IMG/VR virus record: IMGVR_UViG_3300032277_000042
Span: 1 to 33,903 of that record
Reading direction: 5' to 3' (one strand)
DNA: 33,903 bases
From: a virus
Taxonomy: Duplodnaviria; Caudoviricetes
Both the position numbers and the translations under genes were made by a program. The notes under the pieces are model-generated. The model saw nothing but the letters and a program-made list of their open reading frames with translations. It made no database searches and was not told where the DNA came from. Positions within the stretch are counted from its first letter, which is position 1; each line of letters opens with the position of its first letter. Below are positions 7,868 through 22,199 of the stretch, piece by piece.

Positions 7868-8018
7868 CGTCGCTCTCCTTTATCTTGCCGGTGCCACTGC
7901 AGTCGGGGCACGTCTCAACGCGCTCTTCGATGTAGCCGCTGTCGATGTTGAATGATTGGCGGTGAAACAGCTCAATCAGCACGGTGCCAGTGCCGCTGCA
8001 TTCGGGGCATGTGATCAT
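7860..8018 (-). CDS. 52 aa DnaJ-type zinc finger mini-protein
   Basis: Read manually: MITCPECSGTG...ETCPDCSGTGKIKESDDE, two CxxCxGxG motifs; ATGA overlap with the methyltransferase stop. Confidence 0.8.
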   Translation of the reverse strand: MITCPECSGTGTVLIELFHRQSFNIDSGYIEERVETCPDCSGTGKIKESDDE

Positions 8019-9151
8019 AGCGCGTCCACCATGCTGATCCGCTCACCAATCCAGCGCATGACAGGCACAGCCATGCTGTTGCCCATCGCCTTGTATCGCG
8101 GCCCATCAGGGCAATTCTCGGCTGGCTTGTTGCGCCACGGGATTTGCGTGTAATTGTCGGGGAAGCCTTGCAGCCTTTCGCATTCAACGGGCGTCAGGCG
8201 GCGGACAGATGTAGTCATCACAGTGTTGTCATAAACACCCCCAGAGGCAGCTCTAAGCGCGGCTGCTTTATCTGAGGTTGTCTGGTTGTAAGCGTCAAAC
8301 GCCACCGCAGTCGTGTGCCCTACCGATAGCGTCGGTGACATCTCTGGCGTGGACGCCGCCTGTGTGCCACTCATTTCCGCAGGGAAAGCGATGACCGCTG
8401 CGCTTGTCATGCCATCACGGCCACACGACAGCCCTTTGTATTCGCGGCTAGACAGCGTGGTGACAGACCCGTCTTGCACGTTGCCAATTGGCTGCAAATA
8501 ACCGCTGCAAGCCTCGTCAGTGCCTAGTCCACCGCCGCCAGCGCTTCCAGCGCCTCTTGTAATTGTATCGGCAGTTTCTTGCCGCGCTTTTCTGCTCGGC
8601 GCAGGATGCCCCTGCAAGCTGTGGCGCTCAAATAGAACCGCTGCGGCACGTCTCCAGTCTCCAATATGCCCGACAACGAACACACGTCGGCGTCTTTGTG
8701 GAACTCCCCAATATTGAGCGTCACAAATTCTGTATGCGAACCCATACCCGATTTCCCCCATCGCCCCAAGCAAGGTTCCAAAATCTTTTCCTCGGTTAGA
8801 CGACAAGACGCCGGGGACGTTTTCCCAGACCAGCCATCTGGGGCGATATCGTTCAGCAATTGCAAGGAAGGTGAGCATGAGGTTGCCACGCGGATCGTCC
8901 AATCCTTTTCGCAGCCCCGCCACTGAAAAACTTTGGCAGGGTGTTCCCCCGACCAAAAGGTCAATTGATCTGTCATTCGGCCACTCCTTAAATGCTGTCA
9001 TGTCGCCGTAATTCGGCACGTCAGGATAATGATGCGCCAACACCGCTGACGGGAATTTCTCAATCTCGGAAAACCACTGAGGCTCCCAGCCTAGCGGATG
9101 CCAAGCAACGGTTGCGGCCTCAACGCCGCTGCATACGCTGCCGTACTTCAT
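8015..9151 (-). CDS. DNA (cytosine-5) methyltransferase
   Basis: Motif I variant SVCSGVEA, motif IV GGTPCQSFS, VI ENVPG, VIII PQRRRRVF, IX RRLTPVECERLQGFPD, X YKAMGNSMAVPV; ATGA-coupled start at 9151. Confidence 0.95.
   Translation of the reverse strand: MKYGSVCSGVEAATVAWHPLGWEPQWFSEIEKFPSAVLAHHYPDVPNYGDMTAFKEWPNDRSIDLLVGGTPCQSFSVAGLRKGLDDPRGNLMLTFLAIAERYRPRWLVWENVPGVLSSNRGKDFGTLLGAMGEIGYGFAYRICDAQYWGVPQRRRRVFVVGHIGDWRRAAAVLFERHSLQGHPAPSRKARQETADTITRGAGSAGGGGLGTDEACSGYLQPIGNVQDGSVTTLSSREYKGLSCGRDGMTSAAVIAFPAEMSGTQAASTPEMSPTLSVGHTTAVAFDAYNQTTSDKAAALRAASGGVYDNTVMTTSVRRLTPVECERLQGFPDNYTQIPWRNKPAENCPDGPRYKAMGNSMAVPVMRWIGERISMVDAL
8524..8976 (-). CDS. Nested out-of-frame gene, putative methyltransferase second (beta) subunit
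   Basis: 150 codons on the same strand in another frame; TAAGGAG 7 nt before ATG; C-terminal SLSGILETGDVPQRFYLS. Confidence 0.7.
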   Translation of the reverse strand: MTDQLTFWSGEHPAKVFQWRGCEKDWTIRVATSCSPSLQLLNDIAPDGWSGKTSPASCRLTEEKILEPCLGRWGKSGMGSHTEFVTLNIGEFHKDADVCSLSGILETGDVPQRFYLSATACRGILRRAEKRGKKLPIQLQEALEALAAVD

Positions 9152-16820: not shown

Positions 16821-17798
16821 TTAGAGTAACAAATTCACCGCATCTTCAATGCGGCCAGATTTCGCAAAGCGCTCTCGCGCTTTTTTGCGTGCGGAATTTT
16901 CAGCAGTTTCTGGGCGGCGTTTTGCGCCAGCGCGAACGGTTGGTACGGCGGTAGCCTTGGCCTTGCGTTCTTTTTTCCGGGTTTGCAGCTCGCGCCATTT
17001 TTTGGCATCGTTCAAAACTTGAACGTGCCGAGCGTCCTTAACGGCGGCGACTTCTTCCGGGGCAAACCCGTAATAATCGACGCCAGCTTGGACTAATGCT
17101 GCGCGCTTGGCCTCAGAGTCGGGGCCAACCAATTCCGGCAATCTTTCGCGCAGAATATCGACCTGCGCTGCAATGTATTGCTGGGTTTGTGCTTCTTGCT
17201 GTTCAGATTGTTGACGTTGAAGGTGCTGCACTTGTTGCAGTTTCTCGTTATATTCTGCCTTTGCCGCGTTATACGCTCGTTCCTCTTGCATCGCCCCAAT
17301 CGGGTCTTGCTCAAAGTCGATTTGTGGCGGCTTGGGTGGTGCAAGTCCGTTTTGCGCCTGGTTGTACAGCGCCAGAGTTTGCTGTTGTTGCTGTTGCAGC
17401 GCTTGGAATTGCTCTTTGTATTGCTTTTCAGCGTGCGCAATTTCCTGCATTCTGCGGTTGATGTAACCTTGACCCGACGCAGATTGCTTGAGCTGCTCAA
17501 GTGTCTGTTTCTCCATTTTTCCGTCAATTTTGACGTCATAGAGTACAGGTTCAGCGGCTTGCTCTGGGGGTTCATCGTCATCAATTTCTTCGTCATCCAG
17601 GTCATCGTCATCGACCTCGCTGGACGCCTCGACAGGCTCATCCGCGCTCTCGGCTATGTCGGTGTCAATCTCGGTCTGATCTTCATCAGGTGCCTCTGAT
17701 TGAGCCTCCACGGCTTCGCTCGGATTATCATCTTCAGACGTTATGTCTGGCTCTTGTATGAGTTGCTCGGCAAGAGCCTCAAGGTCAGTCGATTGCAT
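16821..17798 (-). CDS. Capsid scaffolding protein
   Basis: Acidic N terminus, VKIDG...TLEQLK, Gln-rich coiled coil, C-terminal RFAKSGRIEDAVNLL. Confidence 0.85.
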   Translation of the reverse strand: MQSTDLEALAEQLIQEPDITSEDDNPSEAVEAQSEAPDEDQTEIDTDIAESADEPVEASSEVDDDDLDDEEIDDDEPPEQAAEPVLYDVKIDGKMEKQTLEQLKQSASGQGYINRRMQEIAHAEKQYKEQFQALQQQQQQTLALYNQAQNGLAPPKPPQIDFEQDPIGAMQEERAYNAAKAEYNEKLQQVQHLQRQQSEQQEAQTQQYIAAQVDILRERLPELVGPDSEAKRAALVQAGVDYYGFAPEEVAAVKDARHVQVLNDAKKWRELQTRKKERKAKATAVPTVRAGAKRRPETAENSARKKARERFAKSGRIEDAVNLLL

Positions 17799-20240: not shown

Positions 20241-22199
20241 TCATTCTCTTCCCACAAGCGGCGCGGCGGTTAACACGCCTGCCGTCGTTAAAAATTGCAG
20301 TAACTTTTGCGACGCCGTTGGATCGTCAATGCGGCGCGCCTCGGCCACCAGTTCGCGCACCAGTTGGTCGCGCTGCGGCCCCTGCATAGATAGCATTTCG
20401 CCCAGCTCGCGGTTGGCCTTGCTTTGGCGCGTGCCGTACACGATTTGATTCATTATTTCGTTGACTGGCCGGTCAAATATAGCGCGCTTCAAACGGGTGC
20501 CAGGTCCGGGCGCTCTGTCGGTGTCCACGTCGCGGAAATCGCCTAACGCGTCAGCCGCCTCGCGGCGCTGCCCAGTTTGCGACCCCTCAATAACCTTGGT
20601 GCGTGTGTTGCTAAATGCTTTTTCTGCGCGCAGCGTTTTCATCACCGCCGCCGCGTCTGCGTCTCCAATAATCATTGCCAGTTTTTCAGCGTTAAAGCCT
20701 TTTTCAAACTGGCCCCAAGCTGCCGCCGCATCATTGCGTGACATACCCATGAGGTTAGTGATATATTCCCGCGCGCCTTTCTTATAGGCGTCGCGTTGGG
20801 CGTCCGACATGCCGTCCAGCATAACGCGCATTTCGGCGGGCCGCAGGGCCGTAGCGGCAGATCCGGTAAACGCCTTACGCCCGTCCTCTATAGCCCGCTC
20901 CATTGCCATGTTGTTTGCGTAACCTGTGCGCGCCGTTGAGTAATTTGGCACCGCATCAAGCATTTCATCAATATCGCCCAAAACTGGCTTTAGGCTGGAA
21001 ACCTTGTTGCCTTTACCGGCGCGTGTGGCCTCGGATAGCGCATCACTTAAAGCGGCGCGGGCGTTGTGCAGCTTGGCCGCTGAAACGTCGCTACTTTTGC
21101 CCAAATCCTTTAACACCGTGCCAAGCGCATTTTTAACGTCGGAAGAAGCATCACCGGCCAGACTTAAAATGCGCTGCCGGATTGGATTGACGTCAAACGT
21201 CATGCCGCTCTTTTTGGCGGCCTCGTACATCGGCCCCAGCACGTCGCTGCGCTCGGCGGCAAGCTCGGTGCGAGCTGTAAACGCCGCGCCTGGCTCGTCA
21301 ACGCGCTTGGTCATTTCTGCATCAATGCGCCCGCCAGCGCCTTGCGCTCGCTTGGTAATTGATTGCTGCAGGATATTGCCGCCTTCGCCCTGCATCGATG
21401 CCAAACCTTGCGCCAATCGCTGGGTTGGCCCTGGCACGTCGGCCAGCGTGCCCTGCGGCCCAATGCTGTCTAAATATGCCTGTATATCCTGCCCACCGGC
21501 CTCGGCGCTGTTTGCACTGCGCGCCATAAGTTGGCTTGATTTTGAGCCGTAATTGCCAACGCCGCGAAACTTGTTTTGAATGCCGCGCCAGCCTGCGCCA
21601 ACGATTTCGCCGGCAACCGGGGCCACTGCGCCAATGCTTGCGCCCACAGCCGTGCCCACGGGTGGAATTTGCTTAACGCTGTCAACAAAGCCATCGCCAG
21701 ACATAAATTCTGGCAGCGCCACGCCGGTGGCACCAAGGCCAGATCCAATGCCCATTTGCGTGACAAGCTGTTTGCCCTGCATGAGTTTTGATACGCCGGC
21801 GGCGGGTATAGCTGCAGACGCAATTGACCCAGCGCTTTGCCCTTTTGCATATTGCTCTGGGGCCAGCACTTGCGCGGCCATATCTCGTTGCCGCACCAGA
21901 TCGCGATACTTGGTGTACGCCTGTTTTGCACCTTCAATATCGCCTTTTTTAAACAAATCGGTGGCAAATTTATACGCGCCGACAATCTCATCAGCGGCGC
22001 TTAGCGATGCGCCGGCCTGCATCCCGCGATAGGACGCAATGGTTTCAATTTCGGCTTGTTTGGCCGTTTTGGTTTTGCCCCGGTATTTGGCAAGCGCCTT
22101 GCGGCCATTCTCGGTGATTGTGCCGTTGGCCTCTTGTCCCTCCAGAACCCTCACCGCCGTCAGGATGCGCTGACTTTCTTCGTATGTCATCTCAGCCAT
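20241..22199 (-). CDS. Putative DNA ejection / internal virion protein
   Basis: 652 aa Ala/Gly-rich helical protein with central hydrophobic segments, last gene of the internal-protein cluster. Confidence 0.7.
   Translation of the reverse strand: MAEMTYEESQRILTAVRVLEGQEANGTITENGRKALAKYRGKTKTAKQAEIETIASYRGMQAGASLSAADEIVGAYKFATDLFKKGDIEGAKQAYTKYRDLVRQRDMAAQVLAPEQYAKGQSAGSIASAAIPAAGVSKLMQGKQLVTQMGIGSGLGATGVALPEFMSGDGFVDSVKQIPPVGTAVGASIGAVAPVAGEIVGAGWRGIQNKFRGVGNYGSKSSQLMARSANSAEAGGQDIQAYLDSIGPQGTLADVPGPTQRLAQGLASMQGEGGNILQQSITKRAQGAGGRIDAEMTKRVDEPGAAFTARTELAAERSDVLGPMYEAAKKSGMTFDVNPIRQRILSLAGDASSDVKNALGTVLKDLGKSSDVSAAKLHNARAALSDALSEATRAGKGNKVSSLKPVLGDIDEMLDAVPNYSTARTGYANNMAMERAIEDGRKAFTGSAATALRPAEMRVMLDGMSDAQRDAYKKGAREYITNLMGMSRNDAAAAWGQFEKGFNAEKLAMIIGDADAAAVMKTLRAEKAFSNTRTKVIEGSQTGQRREAADALGDFRDVDTDRAPGPGTRLKRAIFDRPVNEIMNQIVYGTRQSKANRELGEMLSMQGPQRDQLVRELVAEARRIDDPTASQKLLQFLTTAGVLTAAPLVGRE

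Follow-up and report, generated by a model that had tools for sequence, protein, structure and literature searches.

M.EcoHK31I of Escherichia coli (YGGCCR) is an alpha/beta C5 methyltransferase whose beta polypeptide is encoded wholly in another frame of the alpha gene and carries motif IX; according to the available text of the papers, internal initiation was shown for beta, and removal of its internal starts abolished activity (PMC2836561, PMC3404938). N-terminal deletions of beta weaken both association and activity, with loss in vitro setting in at 42 residues and deepening between 65 and 70, as described in the available part of PMC2836561. M.AquI (CYCGRG) is a two-polypeptide C5 methyltransferase whose small chain comprises the distal variable region and motifs IX-X (PMC3404938, available text). 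By this description it is set apart from the window analyzed here, an entire virus record of 33.9 kb, which keeps these parts in the main chain; M.AquI is nevertheless like our reading of the window in occurring naturally as two chains that divide a C5 enzyme within its variable region.

In mycobacteriophage Corndog, as in the window, a second (+1) frame begins inside the catalytic gene of a C5 methyltransferase; in the available text, the authors could not decide between two products (gp7/gp6) and a frameshift, and the products were not detected (PMC4351075). Unlike in the window, the Corndog main frame ends after motif VIII and the second frame reaches the C-terminal motifs; the latter holds a weak W-x-x-SG-x-M motif in register, with no significant profile match. 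Streptococcus phage SpSL1 cds15 is a 5mC methyltransferase, with 102 of the 113 sites on its phage DNA being methylated in vivo, and the word "frame" is absent from the main text of the paper in the form available (PMC6755750). Like the window, SpSL1 cds15 and the Dmt of a P1 isolate (MH445380) combine a complete main chain with a homologous +1 ORF, which in SpSL1 scores 46.8 bits with a profile of the nested family. Both records leave the ORF unannotated, and the SpSL1 activity data, as far as the paper presents them in its available part, do not separate the chains.

The methyltransferase gene and its nested frame

Genes for an SU10-type capsid and portal, a terminase, and a lysozyme are present in the window, and metagenomes from seawater, marine, and microbial-mat sources contain near-identical DNA; none of the data sets listed as containing it is of RNA. 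The methyltransferase gene lies in a replication-recombination module, preceded by a gene for a RusA-like nuclease (matching RusA-like/PD-(D/E)XK resolvases) and followed by exonuclease VIII, ssDNA-binding, and primase-helicase genes; at both its start and its stop it shares ATGA overlaps with the adjoining genes. Profile matches of the neighbors revealed no adjoining restriction endonuclease. The main chain matches PF00145 in Pfam (E 4e-53) and scores above the cut-off of TIGR00675. PCQ (residue 71), ENV (110), QRRRR (152), motif IX (317-331), and GNS (357) follow one another in a single frame, so numbered by what we take to be general usage in the family. Although motif I is atypical (VCSGVE), the chain bears the hallmarks of a C5 methyltransferase: PCQ, ENV, and QxRxR, motifs IX and X in order, and an HhaI-like fold.

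The nested ORF covers host codons 59-210, comprising motifs IV-VIII and ~50 codons of the variable region. The original prediction had placed here, on the same strand, an ORF of 150 codons over motifs IV-VIII, headed by TAAGGAG-N7-ATG, and the sequence confirms it. The features are as follows.

8015..9151, minus strand: main (alpha) chain, an orphan phage C5 cytosine DNA methyltransferase of 378 amino acids with motifs I-X in one frame
8933..8941, minus strand: catalytic PCQ (motif IV) of the main chain
8684..8698, minus strand: motif VIII (QRRRR) of the main chain
8204..8683, minus strand: variable region of the main chain (160 amino acids), presumed to recognize the target; modeled with low confidence without a partner
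8159..8203, minus strand: motif IX (RRLTPVECERLQGFP) of the main chain, the feature distinguishing the window from M.EcoHK31I
8984..8990, minus strand: Shine-Dalgarno sequence TAAGGAG of the nested gene, 7 nt ahead of its ATG and inside the main-frame F-K-E codons
8524..8976, minus strand: nested +1-frame gene for the small (beta) chain; 150 amino acids, ATG start, a homolog of M.EcoHK31I beta minus motif IX
8740..8760, minus strand: nested residues 73-79 (W-x-x-SGMG), with predicted pairing to main-chain strand 137-144 (motif VII region)
8581..8676, minus strand: nested residues 101-132 (LS-x-ILE...FYLS...RGILRRAEKRG), under the strongest constraint, predicted to be packed against motif IX and resembling the in-frame post-motif-VIII segment of Dcm-like enzymes

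The nested tail, LSGILETGDVPQRFYLSATACRGILRRAEKRGK, spans residues 101-133, and the C-terminal helices are basic. The nested protein is matched by phrog_16143 (E 9.5e-7). Sequence searches of Pfam, NCBIfam, and the PDB with the protein or its profile gave no significant match, and a search of the ESM Atlas with the protein returned hypothetical-protein clusters only. Assembly error was rejected as the source of the two frames, since the gene is free of indels and long identical pieces occur in four DNA runs.

The distance between motifs VIII and IX ranges from 64 to 324 amino acids across 70 relatives. By eye, T-L-x-A-like units recur in the variable region (8204-8683, minus strand), as they do in multispecific phage methyltransferases, which possess several recognition modules.

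Conservation and distribution of the nested frame

Under a synonymous-codon null, the open +1 frame has P=0.004. The window contains two further long +1 ORFs with lower values under the same null (0.0003 and 0.0001), so this test is weak by itself, and the single-gene codon null was rejected as proof of a nested gene. These two ORFs therefore served as matched controls.

17093..17641, minus strand: control +1 ORF of 182 amino acids within a structural-region gene, with no Shine-Dalgarno sequence
21470..21991, minus strand: control +1 ORF of 173 amino acids within a structural-region gene, with no Shine-Dalgarno sequence

They are broken in 6 of 9 relatives (84-100% identity), which, together with the missing Shine-Dalgarno sequences, suggests that they probably arose by chance.

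Conservation across relatives is the decisive evidence for the nested frame over chance. We took the best 80 of 600 relatives by main protein (51-85% identity), picked without regard to the nested frame, and found that frame open for 136-155 codons beyond the catalytic PCQ in all 80, so the stop-free conservation proposed as a check was borne out. As the loci are related to one another, they do not amount to 80 independent events; 75 nested sequences are distinct among the 81 that include the window. The +2 frame reaches at least 100 codons in two of the 80 loci. Motif IX was found in the main chain in 77 of them by motif search.

The Shine-Dalgarno codons and the start codon of the nested gene are under selection. 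With the candidate of best Shine-Dalgarno sequence taken at each locus, the start codon sits 10-11 codons ahead of PCQ in 77 of 80 loci. AGGA lies upstream of it in 70 of 76 distinct genes, and the Lys codon within the Shine-Dalgarno sequence is AAG in 58 of 59 genes versus 306 of 667 elsewhere. At conserved four-fold sites, the third position has an entropy of 1.74 bits ahead of the overlap (11 sites), 0.61 within it (37 sites), and 1.64 beyond it (12 sites). Within the overlap it drops from 1.01 bits (codons 60-100) to 0.24 bits (codons 131-190, under the tail); host codons 60-130, upstream of motif VIII, are also constrained (1.01 and 0.74 bits versus ~1.7). Main-chain amino acids dictate 3 of the 17 invariant nested residues and leave 14 undictated, and the nested motif is retained where host amino acids differ.

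An independent control sample of bacterial C5 genes contained 82 loci, of which 74 were distinct and parsed (six were unparsed and two were duplicates; one unpublished-genome locus was left out). No +1 frame open across motif VIII for ~100 codons on each side is present in 70 of the 74. The other four (L294, L314, L316, and L344) have a long +1 frame that in every case contains motif IX, which is the M.EcoHK31I layout; thus, that layout is not rare either. Three of these four also contain repeated PTP units. Another control locus, L256, has a closed +1 frame yet scores 15.6 bits, which is unexplained.

Relatives similar in length to the nested protein number 1,404, those among the 120 matches listed being unnamed or "hypothetical," and 5,527 representatives at 50% identity clustering match the nested-family profile at E 0.001 or better. 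The protein matched 164 phage records, and the frame is present among phages of Firmicutes, actinobacteria, and proteobacteria alike. Twelve annotated records were checked, 11 from the phage and plasmid match lists and SpSL1 from a paper (P1 isolate, Omega, phi1207.3, DMCA, Mm5, C2, Deinococcus plasmid, Javan422, 4268, K453, zjk6, and SpSL1). In all 12 the match is the unannotated +1 frame of a methyltransferase gene, in agreement with the expectation that annotation misses it; as the main chain looks complete, nothing prompts annotators to search for a second frame. In the P1 isolate MH445380, the nested frame lies in the C5 half of the bifunctional Dmt (dmt, L161:1915-3933). By tblastn, a match (E 0.1 or better) is present in 537 plasmid records, mostly of Escherichia. 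In Omega gp127/gp128 (L162:1697-3001) and phage 4268 orf14 (L251), the nested frame is intact and the main frame ends after motif VIII or within the variable region; Omega motifs IX-X sit in the next gene, which makes three pieces.

Relation to M.EcoHK31I beta and to single-chain enzymes

A near-identical M.EcoHK31I-type locus, L246, was found in E. coli AR_0017 via a published primer (PMC2836561 supplement), which matches 81 of 5,426 complete E. coli genomes. RefSeq lists the alpha gene only at L246:2014-2943, although beta is experimentally established. The main chains of the window and L246 are 40% identical over 178 amino acids. The L246 +1 ORF (176 amino acids) scores 63 bits with the nested-family profile; pairwise, it is 31% identical over 78 residues, nested residues 72-149 aligning with beta residues 36-112. 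In this alignment LSGILE (101-106) matches LSQVLE of beta (65-70), where the deletion series drops further. Judged by sequence, the nested protein is homologous to M.EcoHK31I beta, not merely analogous.

The parallel that the original prediction drew with M.EcoHK31I therefore extends to homology and to the same +1 frame, but fails for motif IX. In both cases the +1 frame of the large gene encodes the whole small chain, over motifs VI-VIII and from a start of its own. Beta runs into motif IX, which is missing from alpha, whereas the window has motif IX in the main chain and a small chain that ends earlier, so its layout lacks one defining feature of the type while being otherwise alike. The nested start lies 11 codons before PCQ in the window versus 26 codons after PCQ in the M.EcoHK31I type, and L246 is adjoined by a restriction endonuclease gene, while the window gene is an orphan. 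The need of M.EcoHK31I for beta is explained, at least in part, by motif IX, which the small chain of the window does not contain. In a search of largely open-access literature, we found no account of a nested subunit in enzymes keeping motif IX in the main chain; nor does the available text of PMC3706429, PMC3711429, PMC11855218, PMC3925955, and PMC12707154 contain one.

The tail had also been likened to a segment that follows motif VIII in single-chain enzymes and is absent from the main frame. Among 73 control segments (one more locus was too short), 19 form a Dcm-like cluster, built without reference to the nested protein, with F-x-FP...L-x-x-ILE...V...KY-x-L and a helix directly after motif VIII. 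This segment aligns to nested residues 100-128 with an hhalign score of 22 (E 0.002, probability 15%), compared with at most 13.4 in 60 column shuffles; main-chain residues 160-316 gave no match (score 8), in keeping with its absence from the main frame. The proposed likeness thus appears real, being above the shuffles, but weak. In single-chain Dcm-like enzymes and SPbeta MtbP the segment that the nested chain resembles, L-x-x-ILE...V...KY-x-L and a helix placed after motif VIII and ahead of the recognition region, is in frame, and the +1 frame is closed. SPbeta MtbP was rejected as a profile match; the motif is visible by eye, but the score (-3.6 bits) is not significant.

Longer homologs of the nested protein numbered 417. 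In 77 of the best 120, the whole nested module stands ahead of a variable region and motifs IX-X, which is the order of single-chain enzymes and resembles Corndog gp7/gp6; in none of these 120 do motifs I-VIII stand in frame ahead of the module as a close single-chain fusion. Some proteins with the module and motifs IX-X represent 9-13 members or 19-33 contigs. A stable clade was not confirmed, as DNA bore out the layout at one locus only (L244), so many of these proteins may be sporadic frameshifts or assembly errors. One scan for their DNA found no locus, and the nearest locus of another such protein had the window layout.

Predicted complex and proposed role of the small chain

Modeled alone, the main chain has a confident catalytic core and confident motifs IX-X, but not residues 184-293, and matches M.HhaI, while the nested chain is poor outside about residues 114-147 (pTM 0.28). 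A complex model of the main chain with nested residues 40-150 scored 0.71 versus 0.01 for the best of three controls, as the two-chain proposal would predict; 116 of 157 solved pairs attained this mark, as did 2 of 215 mismatched pairs. At least 80% of the contacts recur between runs, and the pLDDT of the nested chain is at least 71 in the complex versus 38 beside an unrelated protein. The small chain is packed on motifs VII and IX in this model, the tightest predicted contacts being those of nested residues 73-78 with main-chain residues 116, 124, and 139-142, and of nested residues 101-115 with residues 151 and 317-326 (motif IX). Solved single-chain C5 enzymes, if memorized, may lie behind this result; since these could have guided the model, it shows likeness rather than binding.

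In the nested +1 frame lies a dual-coded, conserved gene that has its own selected start and is homologous to a proven subunit. Taken with the model, the sequence comparisons suggest that its product, initiated separately, is probably a small subunit which binds to the methyltransferase and completes the fold in trans. A single mRNA would yield both chains, the small one through internal initiation at 8976. The small chain would fold on the large one, residues 73-81 being predicted to contribute a strand next to motif VII and residues 101-115 to clamp motif IX, which is predicted to anchor the small domain. It would thereby supply in trans the segment found between motif VIII and the target-recognition region in single-chain C5 enzymes, and the dimer, as is usual to expect of the family, would methylate phage DNA at C5 against host restriction. 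Against fold completion stand the low probability of the single-chain segment match, the SPbeta MtbP score with the profile, and the lack of a close natural single-chain fusion among the best 120 longer homologs. A main chain with all conserved motifs may also work alone, which counts against an obligate subunit.

It is accordingly conceivable, if rather unlikely, that the nested protein, once made, binds an enzyme able to act by itself, as an accessory that stabilizes, times, or inhibits it or relaxes its specificity. The presence of motifs I-X and the confident catalytic core without a partner fit such a role, and conservation and the complex model cannot tell essential from modulatory. However, none of the 80 relatives has lost the frame, which is kept in phages of three host groups (Firmicutes, actinobacteria, and proteobacteria), and the predicted interface covers positions that, by presumed structural equivalence, single-chain enzymes fill in cis. 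A role unconnected with the overlapped enzyme, such as DNA binding or regulation, is very improbable; the basic C-terminal helices and the lack of a Pfam or NCBIfam family or a significant match among solved structures would allow it, but the homology to a proven subunit, the complex model, the longer homologs that fuse the module to methyltransferase C-terminal halves, and the location in the +1 frame of a methyltransferase in every annotated record checked all oppose it.

Programmed ribosomal frameshifting, which the original prediction had kept as an alternative, would join main-frame motifs I-VIII to the +1 tail and leave the rest of the frame unused. The peak of constraint under the tail suits it, and the related Corndog arrangement was left undecided by its authors in the available text (PMC4351075). 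Yet a shift after motif VIII would end at the nested stop without motifs IX-X, and the M.EcoHK31I homolog uses internal initiation, as the available text of PMC2836561 and PMC3404938 describes. The selected start codon and Shine-Dalgarno sequence and the constraint upstream of motif VIII (host codons 60-130) further argue against frameshifting, which we consider highly improbable. It is scarcely credible that the frame is an untranslated by-product of main-protein conservation, codon bias, or RNA structure: chance long +1 ORFs do occur in this genome and the main chain forces three of the invariant residues, but the chance ORFs break in most of their close relatives, nearly all C5 genes of the independent sample have no such +1 frame and the four exceptions carry motif IX in it, and the nested motif is kept despite differing host amino acids.

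We lean slightly toward a wider reading of the separately initiated subunit, in which P1 Dmt, the active SpSL1 enzyme, and others among thousands of C5 methyltransferases of phages and prophages would be obligate two-chain enzymes with an overprinted small chain that contains no canonical motif, the layouts would be interconvertible, and the internal start would provide separate control of activity. With both frames open past motif VIII, single frameshifts could pass the recognition region and motifs IX-X between chains. The M.EcoHK31I, Corndog-like, and window layouts would then be states of one overprinted gene. M.EcoHK31I, cited as a rarity, has a hidden subunit whose homolog is now placed in a large family. 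If the small chain is a subunit, many phage methyltransferases annotated as one protein would in fact be two. If it is needed, codon-optimized or recoded genes would be inactive, and cloning of the native gene would conceal the need. The locus also offers a prokaryotic example of dual coding of ~150 codons over the active-site motifs of an enzyme, useful for the origin and upkeep of overprinted genes.

Word counts over the whole window pointed to no target site for the methyltransferase. Over the same DNA, GAATC/GATTC is strongly avoided (14 versus 46 expected); depletion of GANTC would presumably suit an alphaproteobacterial host with CcrM. GATC is also avoided, and CGGCCG, GGCGCC, CAGCTG, GAGCTC, and CACGTG are near zero, these depleted 6-bp palindromes being consistent with restriction avoidance.
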